From contig ML992516.1 of assembly GCA_010093995.1 (NCBI GenBank), forward strand, positions 478,422 to 538,846: a DNA stretch of 60,425 nt. The letters run 5' to 3'. This stretch comes from Elsinoe ampelina. Its lineage: Eukaryota. The translations under genes and the position numbers were made by a program. Below the pieces are notes generated by a model. The model had not been told where the DNA came from. It did not search any database and saw only the letters and a list, made by a program, of their open reading frames with translations. Each line of letters starts with the position of its first letter. Within the stretch, counting starts at the first letter, position 1. This document shows positions 1 through 60,425 of the stretch, one piece after another.

Positions 1-3000
1 TTATATTTTTTAAGTAATCTAGCTAGCGGCTAAGAGCGTCTACTCCGCTATTCTCTAATCCCTTAATATAGTAGATCTAGAAGTTATAGCTTATAAGTGT
101 TTCTAACTATCGAACCTATTATCTATTAAGAACCTTAGTTATTATCTAATATAGAAGGTTCTTATAGTTAGTATAGACTTATATAGGTAAAGTTGTCTCT
201 TCTAGATATACTCTCTATTCGTAGAATACTTCTATAATTGTAAGTAATTCCTTATCGTATATATCGTAGTTAAGTTTAGGTCTAGTTATTTTTCGTAAGT
301 AGTATATAATTAGGTAGCGTCGTTCTTCTACGCCCTTCTACGCTAGATACGCTTCTATCGTAAAGTCCGAGGCATTTGTTTCTAGTAGTGCTTATTAGTC
401 TAGGTCGAAGAGTACTAGGACAGGTACTATTATAAGCCTAAGCTTTAGCTCCTTAAAGGCCTACCTATACCTCTTATTAAAGACAAAGCTAGTTTCCTTT
501 TTCGTAAGGTTAGATATTAGTATAGCTACCTTAGAGAATCCTTTAATAAACTTATAGTAGTAGTTAAAGAACTCTAGTAGCGCTTAAACCTTCTTAACTG
601 TTGTAGGTTCTAGCTAGTTATTTACTAACTCGATCTTCTTCGGATCGGGTTTAATGCTATTAGTAGATATAATATAGCTTAGAAATTGTATCTTATATTT
701 ATAGAACTTACACTTAGAGAGTTTTACTAGTAGGTCTTTTTCTTTTAGTTTCTATAGCACTTTATAAACATGTCCTACGTGTTTATTATATATCTTTAAG
801 AAGATAATAATATTATCTAAATATACTAAGACAAAATTGTTAAGGTATTCTTATAGAGTGTTATTAATTAACTCTTAGAAGGTTATAGAAGCGTTAGTTA
901 ACCTAAAGGGCATAACGAGGTACTTATATAGACTCTATTACGTCCTAAAAGCCGTCTTCTACTCCTTACTCTCCTTTATTTATACTTAATAATAGGCATC
1001 CCTAATGTTAATTACGGTAAACTATTTAGCTCTAAGTAGTTAGTCTTAAAGTTTGTCGATCCTTAGTAGGGGATAGCGATTCTTCCTAGTAAGTGTATTA
1101 AGTTTCTAGTAATTAATGTATATTTATAACGTTCTATCCTTTTTTAGTGTAAAAAGCACTCTATGCGTAATAGGTAATTTTAATAGTCGTATAAATCCTT
1201 TAAGTAAGTACTTGTCGATATAGTTCTTAAGAATATTCTCCTCTTGTTTTAATAGTAGTATAAGACCTTAATAGTATATTAGGGATTTACCTTCTTCGAA
1301 AGGTATTTTGTAATTCTATAGTTTATATTAGGGCAAGGCTATAATACCTTTTCTTTCTTTAAACAAGTCCTTAAAGTCTTTATATTTTGGTAGAAGTGCT
1401 TAATTACTTACGCTAGCAATAGCTCTAACTATTAGTCGTACCTATACTGTCCTTATAGTTAGTATCTATAGAGCTAATTATGCTCTCTATATTCTATAAT
1501 TACACTTAGAGAATTTAAGTGTTTCTTTAATCTAGTCTATGTCTAGATTATATTATTAAAGCTAGTCTATACTAAGTACTATATTGTACTATATGTTAAC
1601 TATATCGATTAATTGTTTTTCTATATGTATTTCGATTTAAATTATAACGTTTTATAGTTCCTAAGTAACTTTCCTATTCTTCTCTATAGAGGTTCTATCC
1701 GCTATAGTAAGTAGGTAAGGTAACTCCTTCTAGTGTTAATAAAGTTTAAGCTAATTAGTAACTATTATAGAGACGTAGCTATAGTTAGCTCCTAAATCTA
1801 TTATTGCTCTTACCTTACTCTCTTATATTTTAACTTCTAGTATAAAGTAGTTTAACGTGTAGATCTTTATTATATTAAGGCTTTAGCTAGTGTTATTGTC
1901 TTACCTTATTAGGCGACAACTAGCTAGTTTTTTGTCATTATAGCTCCTTAGATAAGTAGCTAATTCCTTTCTATATATATCTACTATTAGTACTATATTT
2001 ATTAGGCAAGTTATGTTTTGTCGCTATTTAATATAGTAAGGTAAACTTCTAGTACCTAAGTCCCTTAGTAACTATAAAGTTTAATAATTCCCTACTAGTT
2101 ATACTAAGTAGTATTATATACTCGTATAGGTATAACTATTTCTTCTAGGTATAGCTAGGCGTTAGTATTAAAGATAAAAACAAGTTATATAGATTTATCT
2201 TATCGCGTCCTATTCTAGTAGTAGGTGTATATTATTATATAATTCCTTTATATCCCTATAAGGTATACTTTAAGTCGTCCGCTCGATAGTAGTACGTCGT
2301 TGTCGTCGTTGTCGAATAAGTCCTTATCTATGTTATTATATTGTAGTTATTTAGTATATTCTTTATTATATTTCTCTTCGTCGCTACTGCCCCTAGTATA
2401 GTTATAGTTAGTAAGGCTATACTAAGTATATTCTTTTACTTAGCTATAGGGAATAGTACTATCTATCTTAATTACCGAGAAGTCTATAGTGTATTTAAGA
2501 CTAATAGTGTCTTCTCTAAGTATATTATATAAGTAGATAGTATAGTACTATTTACAATTTAGATTTATACATTTCTAGAGCGATATATAATACGCCTTTC
2601 CTTATAGTTCGCTATAAGGGCTAAAGGTAAGGCTACTATATTATCGTATAGCACTTGTGTCCTAATACTTTATCTCGATAATTGTATATTAGTAATTGTC
2701 GCTAACTACCTTCTAAGGTTAGTTAATGTTACTACTAATTATAGAGAGCCTTTCTAGGTTAAGCCTCTAGTCTAGCTGTTTTGTTAGTTACCTACGCTTA
2801 TATAGCTTATATAGGAACTAACTAGATCCTTACTTGTCTAATAAGTAAATATAATAAGAGTTATTATAATATACTATCTATAATAGCGTTACATTTTAGC
2901 TTTGTCATTTGCTATTAGTTATAGAGATGTTAAGCGTAACATCCGGAGAGAATTCTATTATCTCTTAAGTCGTCGTAGATCTCTTCTATATTTCCTTACC

Positions 3001-4488
3001 TACGCTAAAGGTCGTTAGGTCTTCTATAGTAGTGTTAGCCTTTTTTTCTACTAGCCCGGCAACTATTATATATAATTTATTAGCTAGCGCCCCTTGTTAA
3101 TAGTCCCTAGCCTAATACCTAAGTCTTTTATACTTAAAACATAAGTTATCTTATCTGTACTTCTTTCTCTCTTTTCTACTAAGGAACTTTCCTCTACGAC
3201 TATAGCCTTGTACCTATAAGGAGTAGCCTTTGTATATAGTATTAAGTTCTATAGAGTCTCTATAGTTTCGGGAGGAACGTATATATCTAGTATTTACTTT
3301 ATATCCTCTACGACGTTCTATGCGTTGTTTGTAAAGTCTATTATTAATAGTAATTATAGTGTCTACTAGTTCCTAAAGGCTATTGGGCAGCTTAGGTATT
3401 ATTTAGTCTTTAACTAAGTCGCTTAGTCCTTAATAGAATACTAAGTGTTTAGTACTATCGTCCTAGTCTAGGTACATTACGAGTTATTAGAACTAGGAAT
3501 AGTACTAGGCTATAGACCTATATTGTTATAATTGTTAAATCTTCGTCGCGGCGATATATTTCTTGTTAGATACGTTAAAGACTTACTTAATCTTTGCCTA
3601 GAAGATGCTAAAGCTCTTAAAGATAGCCTTTATATCTAGGCCTAGTTATCTATCTAGGTAGCTACTTATATAAGGCTTAAACTACCCGAAGGCGGCGCTC
3701 TTAAGGTATATCCCGGCATAGAGGACCTTTGCCGCGTCGTTGCTATACTTATCTCTCTCTAGAGCGAAGAAGGCTTTAAGTTAAACAAGGAAGCGCCTTA
3801 AGTAAGCATAGTCCTTATAGAAGAGTTCTACCTCTAACTTAGGCCTACTCTGTCCTTCTATACTAAAAGACCTTCTATGTTCGCTCGAGGTTAAACTAGT
3901 AGTAGACATGTTATTAATAGTAAGCTTTCCTAGCTTACTAGCGATTAAAGATGCTAATAGTAACTTAGAGCGAGAGTTACTTATTAACCTTATAGCGTGC
4001 TATACTATAGTAAGGGTAGTTAAAATGTTATAAACTGTCTAAATATAGCTTACGCTAGTAGTCTAAGCTAAGCTAAGAACGAGGTAGTTCTACTTCTATA
4101 GTAGTATAGCACTAAGGTAAGAGTTAGAGAAGGTATGTCTTATAGATAATAAAGTATAATTAGATAGTATTATAAAGGCTAGCCTTAGTAATACTAGTGT
4201 TTACTATCTAGACGAGGTTAACTATAGTACTTATATAAGGTAAGAACTATTCCTATATATATATATTCTCTATTATGTTCTCTATATACTTTATATACTC
4301 CGTAGTAAGAGTCAGGAGCAATATAGAGTATACGTCCGCTAGTAACCTACGTGCTCTATAGTTTTAGAGGTAGAGCCGCTAGAGAAGATAGAGAACCGAG
4401 TAAACGTTAGGCTAGGTTACGTAATAATCTCGGTAGCTTAATTAGTCCTAACGTCTCTACATTCTAGCTGTCCTACTAGTTCGTAACA
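1..4488 (-). mobile_element. RIP-inactivated Ty3/gypsy LTR retrotransposon (5' LTR, gag, protease, RT, RNase H); runs off the left edge before integrase
   Basis: Minus-strand relic motifs in gypsy order: gag zinc knuckle CFK(C)KR(PGH)xARD(C) ~3098-3145, protease A(M)ID(S)GA ~1785-1810, RT Y(E)YLV(M)PF(G)LTNA ~890-930 and VYLD(D)III ~805-832, RNase H ET(D)ASD ~365-385 and NYDI(H)DKELL ~240-272. Residues in brackets are restored by reversing C>T/G>A changes. Very TpA-rich and CpA/TpG-poor with many stops. Confidence 0.93.
4026..4488 (-). repeat. Probable 5' LTR (463 bp) of the gypsy element
   Basis: Starts TGTTATAA and ends TCGTAACA (TG...CA; the ends are inverted repeats apart from RIP-type changes). 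Lies just upstream of a candidate gag ATG at ~3909. The second LTR is outside the window. Confidence 0.7.
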
Positions 4489-5850
4489 ATAAGACCTATA
4501 GGAGAACGATTAATAGTAGCTTTACTATTATAAATAGTAGTAGCCTAGGTATACTTATTCTCTATTATAATCTAGTAGTACTTACTAGTTAATATACACT
4601 AGTATAACCTCTTATAGTTATAGTAATTACAATTAGTACAAGTCTATACTAACTCTAATAGAGGCTTCTTATTACTATTTACGCCCTCGAGCGCACTATA
4701 CAATTAGCTCGTTACTAAGCCTTAACCTTATAATAGTAGCGCTAGCTATACTACCTACGAAGATAGTAGTATTATACTAGCTACTAGAGTCTATACTATC
4801 CTTACTAGCGTCGATCTAAGGGAGAATTACTATAAAGGCAGCAGTAGTAGACCTATTAAAGAGCTTAGAACTAGTATAGTTAAAGGTAGTTATATAACTC
4901 TTAAATTTGCTATAGAGTTTATAGCTATTAGTACCTTCTTTATCTCGGTAGTAAGACTAAGCCTAAGCTACTAGTAATCCTTAGTAAGCTAATCTTTAAG
5001 CTTATTAACTAGCCTCTATATCTTAGCTAGCTCTAATATTACTACTCTAAATAGCTACTATATACTAAGACACTTATAGGTAGTAGTATAATTAAGTAAA
5101 AGTAGCTTAAGTATAGCTTAAGTAATAAGACTACTCTTCTCTACTACCTAATTAGCTAGTACTAACTACGATAGATTACTTAGCTAGCTAAACATATGCT
5201 TATTATAGTATAGAGTCTTACTTCTAAGCTTTACTACTAGCTTTACCTCTACTATCTAACTAAGATAGAGTATATCTAAGTCGCTAGAATTAGTCTTTAG
5301 TAACTCTAGTACTTATAACAACTATAGCACCTCTATTACCTATATATCTAGCTCTTCCTCTAGTACTATATCTAACTTAATTAACTACCTTAGCTAGTCT
5401 AGTATAAGTATTAGAAACCTTAATTAAAGAGATAGCTACTAAGATCTAGCTTATAAAGGTAGTATAACTTAGTTTATAGCTTACTCTATAAGCCTCTAAA
5501 GAGCTAGGTTAGTAGATATAACCTTTAGATAAGGTACTACCTATGCTAGCGCTAGTATATAGCTCTTTAGCTAAATAGTTAAACTATAACAAAGGTTATC
5601 TAGTACCTCCTCTAATAAGCTTAAGAAGTGCCTTAAAGAAGAAGAGACTAGTAGTAATAATAGAGAAGTAGAGGATATTATAATTGCCTCCTATGCTGCC
5701 CTTAAAGGTTTCTTCGTATAGCTAGAGTAATAGTTAGTTATAGAAGAAGGACACTTACGAGCTATGATTTAGTAACGTTAGTATATACTAACTAGTCTAT
5801 TATACCTTTTTTTAGCTTTAATTTCATTTAAATAGACAGCGTTGTTAAGC
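4489..5850. other. RIP-mutated AT-rich sequence of unidentified origin, possibly an eroded + strand coding region
   Basis: Same TpA enrichment as the retroelement, fading toward ~5850. The + frame at ~5500-5772 reads like protein once TAG/TAA are read as CAG/CAA/TGG (...KCLKEEET...ASYAALKGFF...EEGHLRAMI*). Confidence 0.45.
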
Positions 5851-6189
5851 TATTCGACTCTATATTCTCTCTGGACCTCCAGCCAGCCAATTTTGGTGAG
5901 CAGAAGTCGGTGAAGAGTACCGCCAAGCCCGGGGTGGCTCGGTTGAACTCAAAACGACTGTATTCTTCGAGTCATTGTCCGCGGAGAATCGAGTCATTCA
6001 CCTCCACCGCCGCTTTCTGAGCTTTCCGAGCTTTGCTTCACTTTTTCTGCATCCCCGCTCACTTTGCGAATTGCTCGACATACGACACTGCACGACACTG
6101 TTCCTCTGCTGCAACCGCAGCGCTACCATCAATTCGAGTGAAAGAGATCAATCTGACAATCACTGCAGCAAGGCGCATCTCTCATCGCC

Positions 6190-49101: not shown

Positions 49102-49317
49102 GGTCGACCGTCGGACTGGGCTGGTTGCAGGTAGTGGTTGAATGCGATGTGGTTGCTGTAAGTGGATGGTTCTCCTATCTCGCTGCGACCTCACTGGCGA
49201 CGAGTCACGTGCATGCCAAGTCTGGTAGTATCTGGCTCCGCTGCAAAATCTGCTCTGCACCACAACTCACACGCATTCCACCACCTCCATTTTCATCTGG
49301 TCCTTCAAAGATTCAAC

Positions 49318-50778
49318 ATGGCCTCATACCATCGATATGTGCCACATAGCACCTCCGCCTCGCCTGTGCCAATCATCACAAGAAGACGTCCGATCGGAAT
49401 GGATCCTCTGACCCGCCTGGGCCGGGACGTCTCCGCCATGCTCTTGAAGTACCTTTCGAAACCCGACCTCCTCTCTCTTTGTCGAGTCAGCCGCGCTGCC
49501 CACGCCCAGGCGACCAGGTTGCTGTACTCCAAGTTCGAATGGCACTGGTCAAAGGATGTGCAGCGTACCATGATCCTGTTCATCCGAGCTCTCCTCAGGC
49601 GACCGCAGCTCGCATCACATGTCAAATCAGTGAAGCTAATAGGATCATCTCGAATGAACGGCTTGAATGAAGGCATATCTCGCACGAACCTTCTTGACTT
49701 GCGACAAGCCCACGAGGCTCTCACGTCTGCCCTTGCGAATCCACCTCAGAAGTTCTGGTGGGACATTCGTCGTGCTGACTTTGGTACCATCGCCACGCTC
49801 CTCTTGTCGCAGTGTCGCAATCTTGAAGATCTGGAGATCGTGGAGCTCCTCCCCGAATTCAACAATGCTTTGGTCCAAGCTCTCCGCGATTCTATAGTCC
49901 AGCGCCAGGCCACAGACCCTTGGTTTCCTCATCTCAAAAGCGTCAAATATGTCACAGCCTTCAGATATCATCACCAACCGACCGAGTGGAAAGAGAATTG
50001 TCTTGTCGCATGGCTCACCAGCACACCCAGCATCGAGACGGTATCCCTTGTGGCGGGATGGCAACAAACTTTCGAGCTGCCGAAAGGGTGCTCTATCGTG
50101 CAACTGGATCTTGCGCACGTAGACACCGCCAAGCTTGGGAAACTCCTCTCCCATACGCCAGCTCTGAAAAGGCTTGTCTGGGAGGTTCCGATGGACGCTG
50201 GACGATTCTCGTCTTCTACTCAAACACAGCAGGATCTTGATGCACTGGTACTTGGGTTGCACCAAGTCAAAGATACTCTGGAGAGTCTCTGCGTCGAACG
50301 TATCGCGAGGCCATACGGCGACAAACCGTACCGCTTCCCAGTCAAGGGTACGATGCGTGGTCTCCGCGAGTTCCACGCCCTCCAGCAACTCGAGCTTCCT
50401 CTGGCTTTTCTTGTTGCCGGCAACCCCGGAGAGCCATTACACATCGAGGAGGTCATGCCTGCGACCATTCAAGCTCTGCGGTTGACTGACTATCCTCGGA
50501 CTTTCGACAACAAACCTTCCAGGCATGGTAGTCCATACCAGGCTCTCAAGCACGCTGATGTGGAACTTTTGGCGATTTCTCATGTGCTAGAACATTTTCT
50601 CCCGACTTCGAGAAAGACTCACCCGTCTCTGCACACCCTGGAAGTCACCTTCAAGGCGGAAGACCAATGGGGGCCGCAGTGGGACAAGTTGAAAGAGCTG
50701 GCTTCAGGGGTTGGATTGCCGATCAAGACAAGTACAAAAGCAAGTTTCTGGTTCGAGTGTGATGGGAAGATGAGGTGA
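49318..50778 (+). CDS. F-box-like / LRR-like protein, paralog 1
   Basis: PLTRLGRDVSAMLLKYLSKPDLLSLCRVSR...LLYS F-box-like motif; LFIRALLRRPQLASHVK; LLLSQCRNLEDL; GTMRGLREF..LQQLELPL. Confidence 0.75.
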   Translation: MASYHRYVPHSTSASPVPIITRRRPIGMDPLTRLGRDVSAMLLKYLSKPDLLSLCRVSRAAHAQATRLLYSKFEWHWSKDVQRTMILFIRALLRRPQLASHVKSVKLIGSSRMNGLNEGISRTNLLDLRQAHEALTSALANPPQKFWWDIRRADFGTIATLLLSQCRNLEDLEIVELLPEFNNALVQALRDSIVQRQATDPWFPHLKSVKYVTAFRYHHQPTEWKENCLVAWLTSTPSIETVSLVAGWQQTFELPKGCSIVQLDLAHVDTAKLGKLLSHTPALKRLVWEVPMDAGRFSSSTQTQQDLDALVLGLHQVKDTLESLCVERIARPYGDKPYRFPVKGTMRGLREFHALQQLELPLAFLVAGNPGEPLHIEEVMPATIQALRLTDYPRTFDNKPSRHGSPYQALKHADVELLAISHVLEHFLPTSRKTHPSLHTLEVTFKAEDQWGPQWDKLKELASGVGLPIKTSTKASFWFECDGKMR

Positions 50779-51666: not shown

Positions 51667-53198
51667 ATGGATCCACCCGACGATGTCCTCAAAAGGGTTG
51701 AGCGAGAACAGGAGGAAGAGCAGCGCAGGAGGCGTGGCCCAGAATGGGATGGCGCATCTCCTCAAATCGCGGAACAGGGTCGAAAAATCAAGCGAGCCAG
51801 GAAGGCTCCGTTCAGCCATCTGGGCATGATATATCGATGATGGTTCTCACTCATCTCTCTACCCAGGATATCGCGAACCTCTACCTCGTCAACTCATACA
51901 CCAGGAACTTCGTGGAACCTGTCCTGTACTCAAAATTCAGCTGGACATGGTCGACAGAGCAAGAGCAGGAATTTCGCAGTCAGAAATGCGAGGATAACTC
52001 TTTAGACGGCAAGAATTCTGCTCTCGTGCTCTTTATCCGAACCCTCATGGACCGACCCGATCTCGCCACACACGTCAAGGCCATTACACTTATCGATCCA
52101 CGTCCTTTCCCTCGTCCTCTTCGTACGACCTCTCTCGACGTGGCCAAAGCTAGCAGGCTCATGGAGCCTTGCCTGCCACGTCCATACGAGATCGCATCAT
52201 ACCGACTGCGCTGGGGCGAGCTTGGGAAGCTGGTAGCACTGCTCTTGTCCCAGGTGCGCAATCTGAGGTCTCTGGAGCTTGACCGGATTTTCAATCATGA
52301 TCTTGCCTATATGGGGATCTTCTGTGATGACTTTCGAGTTTTGCGCGAGAATCGAAAGCCATTCTTCCCTCACCTCAAAAAGATCATGTATCAGTCCCCG
52401 GAATCTCGTGGCGCGGGTAGTAACGAGCCCAGTCGGACGCGACATGTCATTCAGCTTCCCGGCATTGAGACTGCGTCGCTCACACTGTATTTCCCACACT
52501 GGCCACTGGACCCATTGAGACGGGATGCTTCTTACTTCTACCCCTGTCGATCGTCCATAGTCGAGCTGTGCGTCGAGAACATCAGAGAAAAGTCTCTTCC
52601 AAGTCTTCTGCAAAACATGGGCCTCAAAAAATTGACGTATGGATGGACCTATGATCCGTCGGACCTTTACATGGATGGACCTGGAGTTCAACGAATTTAT
52701 CTCGATAATATCGTTCAAGCCTTGTCTTCATCCTGGAACACATTGACTCACCTCACCATCGAGAATCGAAGTGGCCCCTACACACTTCATCATCCAAAGT
52801 TCATGACTTTGGGTTCGCTGAGAGGTCTTCGTGAGCAGACTAAGCTGCAGCATCTTGAGCTCCCTCTGCATTTCATCGCGGGATATCAGCCGGCTGAAAG
52901 GATCCGGATCCAGGAAGTCATTCCTAAGCAGGTGGAGTCTCTGGTTATCACTGACAGCTTCTGGCCACATCCAATATGGGACAGGGGAAACCGGAACCGT
53001 GGGTGGGGCCGTCAGGAAATTCTGGATCTCGTGGGAAGCTTTCTCAAGACCTGGATGACAACAAATCCTTGGTTGAAGACATTGACACTCTCTCTGGATT
53101 CAATGCAGACATGGGCGAATGTGGACTGGGGACAGTTGGACGCTTGGAGCAGGATGTACGACTTGAAGGTCATTACGCCGATCAGGGAGACTTCCTGA
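51667..53198 (+). CDS. F-box-like / LRR-like protein, paralog 2 (apparent 1-nt deletion at ~51822-51825)
   Basis: APFSHLG (frame of ATG 51667) followed by HDISMMVLTHLS...LYLVNS...EPVLYS (other frame) matches the paralogs; LFIRTLMDRPDLATHVK; GSLRGLRE..KLQHLELPL. Confidence 0.7.
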
Positions 53199-53543
53199 GA
53201 CAGCCCCGAGTGCTGTCTTTTGGCGACGCGCTGCGGAAGCAAACATTGGCTGCGGGATAGGATGGTGGGATGAGTCGGTGACATTCGGGGCCATGACAGC
53301 TTCTCTGAAGTATGTATAGATTGAGCGTAATACAGTAATTCAGAAAATTCGAATCAACCATCTGTTCCACTCTCAAAAGCCGCAACAACAGTATGCTTAG
53401 GACGCGCCAAAGTCGTCACGTGATTGTTGCCAAGCATCCACAAAGAAGACCTTGTGAGGATTTTGTCTGCAGGATCTCTTCCACCACTCCTGGCACTTTG
53501 TCAAATCCATCATTTTAGTCTCTACCACCCGCAGCAAGACAAG

Positions 53544-54908
53544 ATGGAGTCTCCCGGCCGATACAGAAGTCAGTTCCCCCCCTTGGCCCGCCTGGGCTAT
53601 GACATTACCAGCATGATCCTGGGCCATGTCTCGAACAGCGACCTCGGTAAACTCTGTCTTGTCAACTCGGCTACTCGAGCCCTCGTCGAGCCAGTTCTGT
53701 ACTCCGAATTTACCTGGACCTGGTCGCAACAGAATCCACCTGCTCTTATCCTCTTCATGCGGACCATACTGGGTCGAACCGACCTCGCCGCTCACACCAA
53801 GTCTGTGAAGCTATTGGACTCCCACCCGCCTCCTCCAACGGACCGCCGAGTCCCCCGCCTGTACCTGCCGACCGCGCTATTGAATGTCTCGAAAGCGACA
53901 TATGCTCTGAACATCAAACTCGCTCGTCATCTCCAGCTAAGGACAGCTCGCATCGCCGAAGGAGATCTTAGTCTGCTGGTAGTAATTCTACTGTCGCAGC
54001 TTCGCAGCCTTCGTTCTATCCAACTAGGTCGAGGTTTCACTTACCGTACCACCCTCATCACCAAGTTGGGCACTGGTATCTTACCCTTGGAATCCAACGA
54101 GCCCTACTTTCCTCATCTCCGATCTATCAAGTATGAATCTCTCGGACATCCCAATGTCAGCGCTCCCAACCGAGATGAGATCAATCGTCTGTGGCAGGTC
54201 GTACAATTACCGGGTATTGAGACAGCCTCACTTGGACTCGACCTTCCCGATATCTCCGATAGCATGTTCCAAAGTCAAGAAGTCTGCCAAATCACGACAC
54301 TGGAGGTGGCGTACCTTGACGAGAGTTTCTTACACCATCTCTTGTCTCGGATGCCGAAGTTGAAGAAGTTGACATGGACTTCATCGAAGAAGGTGTCATC
54401 GAGTCATACGCATACCATCGACCTTGGCCAGCTGCAGTCAGCCTTGCAATATGTGAAGGACACATTGACACACCTTACGATCAAAGGTCGCTGCGACCAT
54501 GTCTCTTCCGATTCACTCCGACTGACTACCACGGGCTCACTATGTCGTTTGCGAGAATTCATGGTCCTCAAGTATCTGGAGCTCCCCTGGCAATTCCTCG
54601 TTGGCTTTCGCCCGGCCCAAGCTGTTCGCATCCAAGATGTCATACCCGAGCAGCTTGAGTCTTTGGTGGTTACAGACAAGGAATTCCTCCCCCATTCTGC
54701 CTGGTATACGAATAATGTGAACCCCGAATGGAATGCATTGGCGGTTCTGAAGATACTCGATCCCTTCCTGCAGGTTTGGAGGACGACGCACCCCTGGCTG
54801 ACGATCTTTTCCTTTAACCTGGAAACGATGGACAGGTGGAGGTCTAACAGAAGGGATGCCCTGAATGAGATGAGAAGGAAGTATGGATTGCCCAATGAGG
54901 TTGGCTGA
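53544..54908 (+). CDS. F-box-like / LRR-like protein, paralog 3
   Basis: PPLARLGYDITSMILGHVSNSDLGKLCLVNS...EPVLYSEFTWTW; LFMRTILGRTDLAAHTK; GSLCRLREF..LKYLELPW. Confidence 0.75.
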   Translation: MESPGRYRSQFPPLARLGYDITSMILGHVSNSDLGKLCLVNSATRALVEPVLYSEFTWTWSQQNPPALILFMRTILGRTDLAAHTKSVKLLDSHPPPPTDRRVPRLYLPTALLNVSKATYALNIKLARHLQLRTARIAEGDLSLLVVILLSQLRSLRSIQLGRGFTYRTTLITKLGTGILPLESNEPYFPHLRSIKYESLGHPNVSAPNRDEINRLWQVVQLPGIETASLGLDLPDISDSMFQSQEVCQITTLEVAYLDESFLHHLLSRMPKLKKLTWTSSKKVSSSHTHTIDLGQLQSALQYVKDTLTHLTIKGRCDHVSSDSLRLTTTGSLCRLREFMVLKYLELPWQFLVGFRPAQAVRIQDVIPEQLESLVVTDKEFLPHSAWYTNNVNPEWNALAVLKILDPFLQVWRTTHPWLTIFSFNLETMDRWRSNRRDALNEMRRKYGLPNEVG

Positions 54909-55590
54909 ATGAAAGCAATTTGATACTGTGCAGGCTGGGTTGTGTTGATGTGGTCAGCTGGATAGGCTAATCACTTTCATTGAACAGCTCTGTAGGATGA
55001 ATTATGGCTTCTCGTAATCAACGCTGGAAGACCAACCCAATTTGTCCATCCACGATTGTCGAAGTGAAAGTGTGAAGGTGTGAAGTTGCCGAATTGGCCG
55101 TGCCCTCGGGTTTTTCTTTTGTTTGTCAGCGTCCCCAGACCGACATTTCCGCTTCTCAATTCAATTTTGCTCTTTTGCTTCTACAAAGGAATCACCGGCA
55201 AGCCTACAAGTTCATCACGAGCACGACGGGATGGATTGTTCGTCATGGAGCAAAGCTTACTGTGTTTTACACTGACGAGTCCGACCGTCAGGCTTTGAGC
55301 ACCCGGACAGGAGCACTGCAAGAGGAATTCTTGTCTGCTACCACGATGGCTACCTGAATGACCTCTACTCCAGCCGACACCAAGTCAGCTTATCAACTCA
55401 TGATCCCCTCCCCGAGCTCGCTATGAAAGTGCTTCTTGAAGAGGTCACAGAAGCTGTTGGAAGTACGGCGGCAGATGATTATCTCCATATGCGGACCGAA
55501 CTCGTACTTCACCTTCGACTCCTCCCCCTCCTGGTGGACTATCCTGGTGAACTTGTCCAGTCCAGCCAGTACAGCTACGATAAGGCCACC

Positions 55591-56457
55591 TTACTTCTTC
55601 TGAATCAACACGGTGTATGCAGCCTCCGGTTCGGCGACTCGAAAGTCGTCGTCAAAGGTATATGGTATGTCGTGGATCAGGTATGTTTTTTCCTCGTCAC
55701 CTAGCAGTCCAACCACAATCTGCTTCCCAACAGCCCAGTCCCTCGCAGCAGCTAGAGCTTCGATAAAGAATTCCTTGGAGACAATCTCTTGTTGCAGATC
55801 GGCAGGAATTGACGCGACCGGCTTGACCTGCTGACCTGTCGCTACAATCGTTCCAATCAGACGTCCCAACGAAACCCTTCCCAGCAGGCTCATGTTGTCC
55901 AGCTCTTTTGCAGTACCTTGGATGTCGTTGAGGTACCCAGACCAACCTTTGCCCTCGCAGCTGAAATTGACCACAAGGTAATCCATCATGCAGATGACCA
56001 TGGCGAGCGGAAGGGAGTTCAACCTGGAGCTGAGATCATGCAGAAAAGCCAGAATAACGACAATGATTGGGTGGGCCGTGTCGCCGGGCTCGTGGTTCTC
56101 GACTTCTCCCTGAAGGCTACTCTGCAGGATTGACAGATGGCTAAGCAGCGCTGACCCTTTCTCGTCAAACCATCCATCGCGATACCAGTCTGCAAGAAAC
56201 AAGAGGGTGAGTGGTGGATCGCTGTCCTCGGGATCGCCTTTCGACTCGCGGGATCCGCAGTATAGCGAGGTGGCGATAAGGCGGCCGTCGCCAGTGGCAT
56301 GCGTCTTTGTTAAGCGGTCATTCTTGCCGAACCAGCTTGCGCCAGTGCTGTTGATGTACGGCCAGACGAGATCTTCTGTAAACCCTCCCGATCCGATTGA
56401 GGTGTACATAGTGTCGAGCATGTCTGCCACCATCCGCTGATGTATCCTGTCAGACAT
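55591..56457 (-). CDS. Hypothetical protein (288 aa); frame reopens for 65 codons after the TAA, so possibly prematurely truncated
   Basis: Long ORF with protein-like composition; the same frame continues GGLIVAVLAGLDKF...EGIMS* to 55393. Confidence 0.55.
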   Translation of the reverse strand: MSDRIHQRMVADMLDTMYTSIGSGGFTEDLVWPYINSTGASWFGKNDRLTKTHATGDGRLIATSLYCGSRESKGDPEDSDPPLTLLFLADWYRDGWFDEKGSALLSHLSILQSSLQGEVENHEPGDTAHPIIVVILAFLHDLSSRLNSLPLAMVICMMDYLVVNFSCEGKGWSGYLNDIQGTAKELDNMSLLGRVSLGRLIGTIVATGQQVKPVASIPADLQQEIVSKEFFIEALAAARDWAVGKQIVVGLLGDEEKTYLIHDIPYTFDDDFRVAEPEAAYTVLIQKK

Positions 56458-56806
56458 GCTGTGAGTGGCTGGCGAATGGCGGGGTGTGGTGGTCTAGGGC
56501 GATCGGAACAAGGGAGTAGATTCACGAAATGGTCCATACTGAGTTTGATGCCAAGACCTTAGTCACCCGCGGCGAGAGGCAACCGGCGGCGACATTTATT
56601 TACCCGATACTTTTACGCATCACTTCTTCGCCTTTATTCATCATAATTCCACCTCTGCATCGGGCGCACGCTTACACCTTCAATTGTTGCCCATTCGACC
56701 AAGATCCGCACAGGCGGTCACATTCTGTCTTGAGAATCGAGGTAAGACGGTCCTCAACACCTATCAGATATAACGACTCACACTGCAGATATCGCCACCC
56801 GCTACA

Positions 56807-58621
56807 ATGGATCAGACTTCGCATGAGCACCCCACTGGGTCATCCGACAGAGACGACTTCTCCGAACTCACCATGGCCGAGCGGGAACAGTTTCACGACC
56901 TCATCTCCGCCGACGAGGCAACAGTCGCTCGCGAATTGGAGGATCTTTTCGACGACCCCGACCACGTCGATCGCAATCGTGCGGCCATCAACCAGGCGTA
57001 CAAGGAGAAGGCTGCTGAGACTACTGATGAAGTGAAGCGTCAGGCCTACCTCGCAAAGATCAAGGGCACTCTCGAGGATGACGACCCAGAGGATGAGTCG
57101 GTGACAATCTTCAACGAGTCGACCCTGGAGCAGCGTTCACAGTTCAGCGAGGACGAGAAGAAGGCTTACGAGGACAAGAGGAGCTTGTACCTGGACCATG
57201 TCGGCAAGAAGATGCGCAGCCTTCCTCCACCAGAGCAGCTCCCGCCTTCCATTAGGGCCAGAATCCAGCTGCCGTTTTTTAGCGAGCGCATGCAACGTCT
57301 CTTCCATTTCTGGACTGTCGGAGGGGAGCGGCCCCTGTTGAAGCATCTGCTGGCCGAAGGTATCAGGTCCGCCATCCTAGGAAGGTCTTGGTGCTGACGT
57401 TTGAAAGATCACCGCTACAGCACCGCCAGCGGATCCACTAGTATCTGGAACTCTAATCAGAAGGACGTGAGCCCCAAGCTCATTGAGCTCTTCGCCATGT
57501 ACGAAGGGGACTTTATCACCACCGCTTTGAAGGGCCAGATCAGCGAGTACTTCCGCGATCCCTCCAAAGCTGCCTTTCTCTTCCAGAGTCCAGATGGAGA
57601 GGAGATTGACTGCATCATTGGTCAGCGTTTTGAGAATTATATCCTCCTCCTCCAGGACCAGGACGGCGACCGTTTCACCATCAGCCAATTCCATCAGCTG
57701 CTCGACTTCCTCAAGGCGTACATTGAGGATGGCGAGCCAGCCCACACGACCAAGGAAGGCACTGCGAAGGGCGACAAAGATATCTTTGCTGCCCCCGGCG
57801 ATGGCGAAAGCCACGGAGCAGCCATCGTCCGCAAAATCGACGAAGCCGTCAATGCCGACACCACAGCCAAGGCTCACAAGCACCACAGGCGCTATCTGAC
57901 CAGTGCAGAAGATGTCCGTGTCTTACGCAGTTGGTTGGGATGGTGGGAGGAATACCTTTCGGATATCCAGAGTGTCTACGGCATGCAGGACGACCAGGAG
58001 CTGCCAAAGGATATCACTTATGTCGGCTGGACTCACACCCCGCACATCAGCAAGCAGAGTCACAGCCTGCACTGCAACAGTCTTTCACTTGTGAATCTTG
58101 TCGACGCCGCCGCGATTGCCTTGAGCAAGGAGATCCATCAAAGCGGTAAGGTGGTCAAGATGCGCTATCACACACTCCGACTCGTATATGATGAGGAAGT
58201 CTCCGAAGACGGGGAACACTTTGACTCTCTCCTGACTGGCTCTTACTACTGGATGGGCGGTCTCAAGACTGTTTTCGGTGGAGGTTTTCACGACGCTGCT
58301 CACGATCCCGAGTATAAACATCTCTACGAACACAACCACGGCCAGCTCGAGATCATGGGGCATCTCCTGGACAACATGCAGCGTGTGAACGAGAACATGA
58401 AGAAGGATATCGAGCGTGTGGAGATGCATCAGCAGCTTGTCAACGAGTTGAAGCAGGCGATTGAGAAGCTGCCGACTCTGGGTGCGGAGATCCGTAAAGG
58501 GAAAGCGGAGCTCAGAAAACTCAACCATCTGCGCAAGCTGCGCAAGCAGCAGAAGCAGGAAGTCAAGGAGGCTTTGCTGGCTCTGTTGAGGGCGGCCATG
58601 GCCAAGTCGGCAGACGAGTAG
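56807..58621 (+). CDS. Orphan protein (~588 aa) with a degenerate GIY-YIG-like domain and C-terminal coiled coil (paralog A)
   Basis: A 48-nt intron 57360-57407 (GTATCA..GCTGAC..AAG) joins ORFs 56807-57397 and 57401-58621 in frame; clear homology to the convergent gene. Confidence 0.7.
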
Positions 58622-58800
58622 AGTGATGCTCGGTCAGGGAGGTGAGATCACCGGTGGACCAACAGGCCGTAGAAGGATGGCAGAGTCTACAAGCAGTGAA
58701 TGAAGCGGGGACAGGGTGATGAGTACAGGAACCACTGTCTTCGGTACTCATTGAAATTTACACAAGTACTCTATAGGAGTGGCTGGAATATGACCGAATG

Positions 58801-60095
58801 TTAAAGTCCGAAGTCTCTCCGAGGTACAGTAGATATATAGAATGCTCCCGCCTTCTCCTCCGCGAAAATCCTTTTCCCCATCTCCATCATTCGTTCATTG
58901 CGCAGGTCACGAAGCACTGGCCCGGCCAAGTTTTCATCGATGAGATCAAGCTTCACGAGGTGCTCAATGACCTCTATCCAGTACCTGGACGTCTTCTCCG
59001 CTCCGACCGCAGGCTTCAAGACCTCGCACCATTGCTTTGCCACATACTCGGCTATCCTCTGCGCCTCCTCGGACGCCTTGTCCGCCTCGTGAAGCTGCAT
59101 TTTGGCATCCAGGTTACCCTTCTTGACGTCCTTGACTGTCGACTTGTAGTCCTTGATCATCTGGACAATGTTGCGATGGATGTTGACTCGCTCGACGTCC
59201 CGACTTACACTGTCGGTGATGCGCTGAAAGTTATCGAGGAACCGACCTGTTGCTTTCAGCTGCCGGTAGTTCTTGGGATACAAGCGTCTTTCTCTCTCTG
59301 CACTGACGTTGCTGCCTCCTCCGAAGGTGGTGTTGGTACCGCCAAGCCAGACGTACGAGTTGGCAAGCAAGGAGTCAAAGTGCTCGCTCATTTTTGCCAG
59401 GCCTTCTTCGTGGATCAGCCGGAGGGTGTGGTAGCGCATCCTGAATTCGTGGGTGAGGTTGGTCTCCCTGCTCATCACGAGGGCCGCTGCGTCAACAAGA
59501 TCCATGAGTCGACCCGATGAGGAATGGGTGGTGTGAGCATTCAAGCGGACATATGGCTGGTATGTGTATCCAACATGACAGACATCTTTGGGTACAGTGT
59601 CGAGGTCGTGCATGTTGAATGGAGGGCGGCGGCACTTCTCGAGATATAGATTCCACGAGGCGGCCCACTCCCGGGCTGATTGCTTGTCCGTATCACTGTT
59701 GAAGTAACGCCTCTCTAGATCGCTCATCGTCTTCCTGGCGGCTGGATTAACGACGTTGTCGATGGCGCGAACAACTGCTGTGACGGCCCATGGCTGTTCT
59801 TCTACTCGCAAGATCTCTGGTGGTGGGCTTCGGCGAGTACCCGACGTGGTAGCAGGTGCTTGTTGTCCTCCTTGGGCGGCTTGTTGTCCTCCTCTGACGG
59901 CTTGTTGTCCTCCTTGTGCAGCTGCCGTGGCAGTTGTCGATGCTTGTTCCGGAGCAGTCGGGGCAGCGACCGCAGGCTGTTGGGCTTGCCATGTCGGTTT
60001 TCTGGACGCACATCAGCAAACTATGCCAAGAGCATGATGCCTAACTTGTTGTAATGGAAGGCTGGTACAGCTTCTCTGGTACTGAAGAACTGGTA
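58801..60095 (-). CDS. Orphan protein with an intact GIY-YIG-like signature and coiled coil (paralog B); 5' exon runs into the RIP zone
   Basis: Frame open from 60001 to 58801, preceded by intron 60002-60045 and a small exon ~60046-60095; HVGYT-x5-R-x3-H ... SEHFDSLL ... GGTN. Confidence 0.65.
59857..59922. repeat. 21-bp in-frame tandem repeat x3 (GGQQA-containing heptapeptide) in paralog B
   Basis: GCTTGTTGTCCTCC core repeated three times at 21-bp spacing. Confidence 0.85.
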
Positions 60096-60169
60096 CTGAT
60101 GAGTCAGCGCACGCACAGTAGATAAATCGGTTATTGTAACTCTCTGAATGAAACACACGTCTCTCGATC

Positions 60170-60425
60170 CGATTTGCTAGTTATAATAGGTTATAAGCCC
60201 GGCGCTTCTACAAAAGCACTTAAAGCTATAGCAAATTAAGCATGTCATTATTAAAAGGATTACTAAGCCGCCCACACTAAATTCTAGACTAGCTATATTA
60301 AGATAAACACTTATAGTAGCCCGTATTAACCCTTTAATTAAACGGTTTAAACGGCTTAAATAAGCTAATTACATTAATTAAATTAATAGGCCTTTAGCTA
60401 ATTACTATTATTATGTCTAGATTAG
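60170..60425. other. Start of a second AT-rich RIP-mutated block
   Basis: Abrupt GC drop and TpA enrichment as at the left edge. Confidence 0.8.

Follow-up and report, generated by a model that had tools for sequence, protein, structure and literature searches.

The terminal 60 kb of contig C16 (ML992516.1) in the 28-Mb genome of Elsinoe ampelina, a 60,425-nucleotide stretch hereafter called the window, ends in two genes that face each other tail-to-tail, A on the plus strand and B on the minus strand, with 179 bp separating their stops. A predicted structure supports the assignment of both to a family of GIY-YIG nucleases in which a helical insert, some 100-170 residues long, parts the GIY strand from the YIG strand. 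On balance, we think it probable that this locus reflects the fast birth and death of such nucleases, through inverted duplication, catalytic decay of A and a later knock-out of B, and that it contains no working poison-and-antidote pair. The family is real, but the specific toxin/antidote module that an earlier note proposed for these genes is not supported.

The convergent pair and its common motifs, as first described from the sequence, are confirmed. A and B align with 83 identities in 212 positions (39%, E 6e-45), far beyond chance, and share PKD..(Y/H)VG(W/Y)T, LVDAAA, MRYHTLRL, EHFDSLL and GGG. The fold that was then called tentatively is also supported, as the predicted structure aligns with I-TevI beginning at model residue 53 (I-TevI residue 2) and includes the GIY-YIG hairpin, the arginine helix, the linker strand and the glutamate helix. 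The N-terminal GIY triplet had been considered unrecognizable. It can be placed in A as ENY (57632-57640), in a strand located 129 residues ahead of the YIG-strand glycine, with the register of its tyrosine to I-TevI residue 6 taken from the aligned range. Both Pfam and Foldseek miss the family because the long insert splits its signature motif. The parts of gene A are as follows.

56807 (ATG) to 58621 (stop), plus strand: gene A, spliced product of 588 amino acids
56742 to 56788, plus strand: intron in the 5′ untranslated region of A, GT-AG, 47 nucleotides (nt), seen spliced in X3, X4 and X8 contigs
56807 to 57359, plus strand: coding exon 1, an acidic, low-complexity N-terminus and then the beginning of the family N-terminal region
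57360 to 57407, plus strand: coding intron, 48 nt, phase 1, splicing in RNA contigs of X3, X4 and X8
57408 to 58621, plus strand: coding exon 2, the split GIY-YIG domain followed by a long helical (coiled-coil-like) tail
57632 to 57661, plus strand: GIY-equivalent beta strand (ENY.., Tyr 57638-57640), strand E55-62 in the predicted model, placed by structural match
58019 to 58063, plus strand: YIG strand (YVG) and arginine helix, with Ser in place of Arg (58049-58051) and His retained (58061-58063)
58214 to 58267, plus strand: glutamate retained (58214-58216) and Lys in place of Asn (58265-58267)

Conservation of the active site was scored in 17 outside homologs, a set that omits own-genome proteins and near-duplicates (P0005, P0022, P0028, P0030-P0032) as well as repetitive or very long weak matches (P0019, P0021). 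Arginine and histidine are each found in 16/17, and glutamate and asparagine in 16/16. The GIY tyrosine is present in 12 of the 13 homologs that have the column (4/17 are gapped there), in A, and in the half of B that lies on contig C52. The YIG motif is different: its glycine is found in 17/17, its tyrosine in 0/17 and otherwise in A only, and H, E, D or Q occupies its place. Given that Hpy188I, whose GIY tyrosine is the proposed general base, is active without a YIG tyrosine (PMC3045582), loss of this residue marks a variant rather than grounds for exclusion. Mutation of the asparagine in ANKLE1 (N565D) is reported to lower activity more than 50,000-fold (PMC10287932). In the protein numbering of A, Ser399 replaces the arginine and Lys471 the asparagine, which bears out the degenerate site proposed earlier. 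Because the arginine, histidine, glutamate, asparagine and GIY tyrosine are conserved outside, and because A has lost the arginine and the asparagine, the family is probably catalytic and A is probably a pseudo-nuclease, with a GIY-YIG fold and a predicted loss of catalysis.

A phmmer search of 1.84 billion representatives returned 23 matches, to which word searches added a few more. Named members come from five genera (Elsinoe, Sphaceloma, Elasticomyces, Microthyrium and Zymoseptoria), and clusters of 176, 85 and 89 members in the ESM Atlas, mostly from Ascomycota, have no Pfam label. No NUMOD, UvrB-binding, RING, ankyrin/LEM or RVT domain was matched in Pfam at E<=0.1 in 24 members, nor in A, B or the same-species protein P0015. 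None of the GIY-YIG families in the accessible part of the tabulation in PMC1564403 fits (homing, UvrC/Cho, Slx1, COG3680/ANKLE1, COG1833, Penelope and restriction enzymes), and literature searches of openly available papers showed, in the entries listed, no description of this family. In a phylogenetic tree, A, B, P0002 (a 682-residue Sphaceloma murrayae homolog) and an E. australis protein group in one unresolved clade. Among the close A, B and P0002 rows A has the longest branch, 0.82 versus 0.53 and 0.49.

Gene B carries the catalytic residues attributed to it (Arg 59547, His 59535, Glu 59385 and Asn 59334), in the expected spacings G-x7-R-x3-H and E-x16-N, but it is not the intact gene that had been supposed. 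Its frame in the window has no in-frame start in the first ~95 codons, and the first in-frame ATG, at 59727, is preceded by four out-of-frame ATGs. The 5′ half resides on contig C52, past a retrotransposon whose long terminal repeat (LTR) begins at 60047, and the right boundary of 60095 given for the pair therefore lies 49 bp inside this repeat. The features at this end of the window are as follows; RIP denotes repeat-induced point mutation.

58801 to 60012, minus strand: open frame of gene B in the window
58801 to 60001, minus strand: last coding exon of B, 399 codons, with a Gln/Ala-rich linker, the YIG strand (HVG) and the helical tail, without the GIY strand
60002 to 60046, minus strand: 3′ part of the B intron (branch-like CTGAT, CAG acceptor), whose donor GTGAGT is at C52 4045-4040
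60042 to 60046, plus strand: target-site duplication TAACT, 5 bp, repeated at C52 4038-4042 straight after the 3′ LTR
60047 to 60188, plus strand: 5′ LTR of a RIP-mutated Ty1/Copia element, 142 bp, with 4 differences from the 3′ LTR on C52
60189 to 60425, plus strand: what we take to be a primer-binding-site-like motif and the start of the element interior, to the contig end, 98% identical to a copy on contig C2

Part of B is identical to a database protein named Elsinoe ampelina hypothetical protein. P0015, which was found by a search with A and whose match to the family is confined to the N-terminal part, maps to C52 5096-4045 on the minus strand and is the 5′ half of B, holding the GIY tyrosine. 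The contig ends that carry the two halves face each other; both halves are on the minus strand, are collinear with a complete element elsewhere in the genome, and match P0002 residues 86-317 and 358-670 without overlap. Reading phases agree across the C52 donor and the 60002 acceptor, and the coding intron of A matches intron 1 in the C52 half of B in both alignment column and phase. The assembly does not join C16 and C52, and the linkage is drawn from sequence. Nevertheless, because the target duplication, donor motif, reading phase, P0002 coverage and A-shared intron position all agree, it is a well-supported inference that the two halves form one gene B of ~719 codons split by a Copia insertion. 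Within its insert region (59800-60000, minus strand), B carries three copies of a short GGQQA-type Gln/Gly/Ala repeat that is found in neither A nor P0002.

The inserted element has the hallmarks of Ty1/Copia: TG..CA LTRs, a 5-bp target duplication, a polypurine tract and an RVT_2 reverse transcriptase. It entered 8 nt into the third intron of B, between the GIY tyrosine and the remaining active site, and this intron, 48 nt before the insertion, is now at least 4.4 kb long, compared with 46-66 nt for other introns here. The portion in the window (RIP indices 1.54/0.78) is 98% identical to positions 1-379 of the C2 copy. That copy is complete at 6.9 kb, shows its own 5-bp duplication, lines up collinearly with the two pieces, and matches RVT_2 (E 4.6e-21) despite 10 stops. 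On C52, positions 1-4037 hold the 3′ part of the element, closed by the polypurine tract and an LTR of 142 bp. When window positions 59700-60425 were used as a DNA query, the start of a high-copy repeat fell at 60047, with 39 other copies at 95-99% identity among the 40 scored of 191 candidates. The 4/142 differences between the LTRs are all transitions (RIP-type), and both halves of B keep open frames without a RIP signature. The earlier placement of the pair at the edge of a RIP block thus requires revision: gene B itself contains the RIP-mutated DNA, and beyond the element C52 returns to GC-rich genic sequence for ~19 kb. Ahead of the terminal LTR on C52, beside a short N gap, lie another LTR fragment and a repeat of the 3′ end of the element (L034:3414-3488), which could represent copies in tandem, nested copies or a fault of the assembly.

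Four sequencing runs were compared: X1, a DNA run and perhaps the origin of the assembly, and X3, X4 and X8, represented by RNA contigs. In X3 and X4 the introns of A are spliced, and the contigs continue through B and past the acceptor at 60002, reaching 60074 and 60076 in the LTR with no spliced joint. The X8 contig spans 58746-60027, with its start inside the B intron remnant. The 3′ half of B is transcribed in unspliced form, although assembled contigs drop rare forms, 19 loose ends lie outside the contigs compared, and rare splicing of B could escape detection. No sequence difference is listed over 55500-60046, and the runs may therefore come from the same strain and be uninformative on polymorphism.

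Protein searches of the genome reveal at least nine family loci, a lower bound. The catalytic residues are present at three: B (split), C15 (an open frame of 1009 codons) and C14 (frameshift and stops). Six are degenerate, namely A, C16 at 36 kb, C5 at 1739 kb, C8 and C3, all with open frames, and C5 at 1723 kb, which is broken. Broken copies account for three of the at least nine loci (intact-site 2/3 versus degenerate 1/6, p 0.23). A and B are the sole adjacent pair, and the one active/dead pair seen in this single genome; seven of the at least nine loci have no adjacent copy, a pattern that the earlier note itself had named as counting against a toxin/antidote module. When the window, C52 and five stretches of 6-10 kb were scanned with a profile, no further neighboring copy appeared; flanks of C3 and C5 at 1723 kb were covered for ~1.5 kb per side, and the C14 copy sits where its contig begins. 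Both copies on C5, which are 16 kb apart, are degenerate. None of the five degenerate copies other than A is beside an active copy, which indicates that catalytic loss is common and independent of an active partner.

Among the other copies, C14 (L007:280-1109) keeps Arg, His, Glu and Asn but contains several stops, and its frameshift falls between the Arg and the His. L009:4686-6761 (692 codons) and L008:3698-6724 (1009 codons) are single long open frames, unlike the intron-bearing A and B, and are possible retrocopies or products of intron loss. One of them adjoins what is presumably a serine hydroxymethyltransferase-like gene.

We infer the following order of events. Sister copies A and B would have arisen when a nuclear fungal gene for a GIY-YIG endonuclease, with spliceosomal introns, was duplicated locally in inverted orientation, within a family that appears to multiply and decay quickly. 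Nuclease activity is the most likely function of intact members, judging from their residues and the predicted model, and they would nick or cut DNA by a one-metal route, with the GIY tyrosine as general base, the arginine on the phosphate, and the glutamate and asparagine on the metal. After duplication, A would have lost its arginine and asparagine while keeping its fold, frame and spliced mRNA, whereas B, with all catalytic residues kept, would later have been interrupted by Copia in this genome. The insertion parts the GIY tyrosine from the other active-site residues, and RNA from the 3′ half could not encode the whole domain. An intact, expressible toxin gene is not what is found here, as B is split within its nuclease-coding region and gives unspliced read-through RNA. 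The locus probably makes no active nuclease, leaving A with no poison to neutralize.

Might the locus instead be the relic of a poison/antidote system of the spore-killer or allorecognition type? In such a history, an uninterrupted B was toxic, a dead A was protective, either by binding B through its helical tail or by competing for the DNA site of B, and the Copia insertion was a later suppression of the killer. The tight tail-to-tail linkage would suit this scheme, as would the predicted fold and the expression that A retains, the fast divergence, the many paralogs and the disruption of two of the three catalytically intact copies. Against it, the five other degenerate copies have no active neighbor, the 10 kb retrieved around the intact C15 copy holds no dead neighbor, and the only A/B-clade protein retrieved for S. 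murrayae, P0002, has all catalytic residues. Nor does the RNA for A and B, of vegetative or in-planta type as far as unrecorded library types allow, point to meiotic specificity. There is precedent in SPOK1, a fungal spore killer with a putative nuclease domain that kills through DNA, and in Sk-2 and Sk-3, which use two separate genes (PMC9972908). All told, we consider this history unlikely. The broader proposal is similarly doubtful, namely that this unannotated ascomycete family comprises selfish killers or allorecognition effectors with dead paralogs as dominant-negative antidotes, and that a retrotransposon-silenced killer B lies here beside a still-expressed antidote A.

A housekeeping or meiotic role as a structure-selective nuclease, similar to SLX1 or ANKLE1, also seems improbable to us as the explanation of this locus. 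In that case A would serve, without catalysis, as a subunit that binds DNA or acts as a scaffold, and its paralogs would be subfunctionalized rather than decaying. The strong conservation of catalytic residues across the five genera is consistent with such a role, as are the several copies amid housekeeping genes and the structure selectivity of described animal nuclear GIY-YIG enzymes (PMC10287932; bioRxiv 10.64898/2026.03.19.713005). It is very improbable that B is still made at full length, coexisting as an active enzyme with dead A, through removal of a multi-kilobase, element-containing intron: the donor, branch-like site and acceptor do survive and both halves stay open without a RIP signature, but the intron is far outside the local size range, RNA contigs from two studies cross the acceptor, and open frames would also be expected if the insertion is recent, its LTRs differing at 4 of 142 sites.

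Other features lie elsewhere in the window and on C52. An orphan gene at 55591-56460 (minus strand), for which no homolog or paralog was found, diverges from A with a short upstream region in common, and run X4 shows splicing of its 66-nt intron (55978-56043) while X3 does not. Just upstream of the A/B pair are three similar-looking, tandem F-box/leucine-rich-repeat-like genes on the plus strand (49162-50778, 51702-53198 and 53424-54908), of which only the first has a Pfam F-box match, a weak one; a look-alike is found on C52 (22217-23551, minus strand). Window positions 1-6000 form an AT-rich, RIP-mutated block with no match to the Copia element of gene B. Among lineage-specific genes upstream of B, a 1004-codon frame with long Thr/Asn/Ala-rich heptad-like repeats (C52 9999-13010, plus strand, L035) gave no confident Pfam match.

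The family departs from the I-TevI catalytic domain (PDB 1LN0) and from GIY-YIG homing endonucleases in that its GIY and YIG strands are ~115 residues further apart, H, E, D or Q replaces the YIG tyrosine, and a helical tail takes the place of NUMOD-type DNA-binding modules; its genes are nuclear, have spliceosomal introns and do not lie inside a group I intron. It resembles ANKLE1/LEM-3 and Drosophila Hotaru in being eukaryotic and nuclear-encoded, with a lengthened GIY-to-YIG spacing and an essential asparagine. However, the spacing is 33 residues in ANKLE1 (Y453/Y486; PMC10287932) and Hotaru (Y88/Y121; bioRxiv 10.64898/2026.03.19.713005) and 127 in A (Y262 to Y389), and the present family lacks an ankyrin/LEM domain or LEM-3-type Pfam match, is multi-copy and frequently loses catalysis. 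Unlike R.Eco29kI, Hpy188I and T4 endonuclease II, it is eukaryotic, no methyltransferase partner was seen, and its far longer insert lies inside the GIY-YIG hairpin. Spok in Podospora, Sk-2/Sk-3 in Neurospora and wtf are likewise multi-copy, fast-evolving families with broken copies. Spok also kills through DNA (PMC9972908), but it combines nuclease and resistance domains in one protein, and no sequence or fold link to fungal spore killers was found. The accessible parts of the surveyed literature describe no fungal killer with a GIY-YIG domain or with a dead paralog as antidote.

Gene B clearly illustrates how a transposon that breaks an assembly can leave a single gene wrongly annotated as unrelated pieces on separate contigs. 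More broadly, the family adds to fungi a nuclear GIY-YIG lineage whose GIY-to-YIG spacing exceeds that of the other enzymes compared, and at least three ascomycete-dominated ESM Atlas clusters of 85-176 members carry no family label. Naturally intact named members are available for direct study of nuclease activity and toxicity. If intact members were toxic and dead paralogs protective, the family would represent a new class of fungal selfish element.
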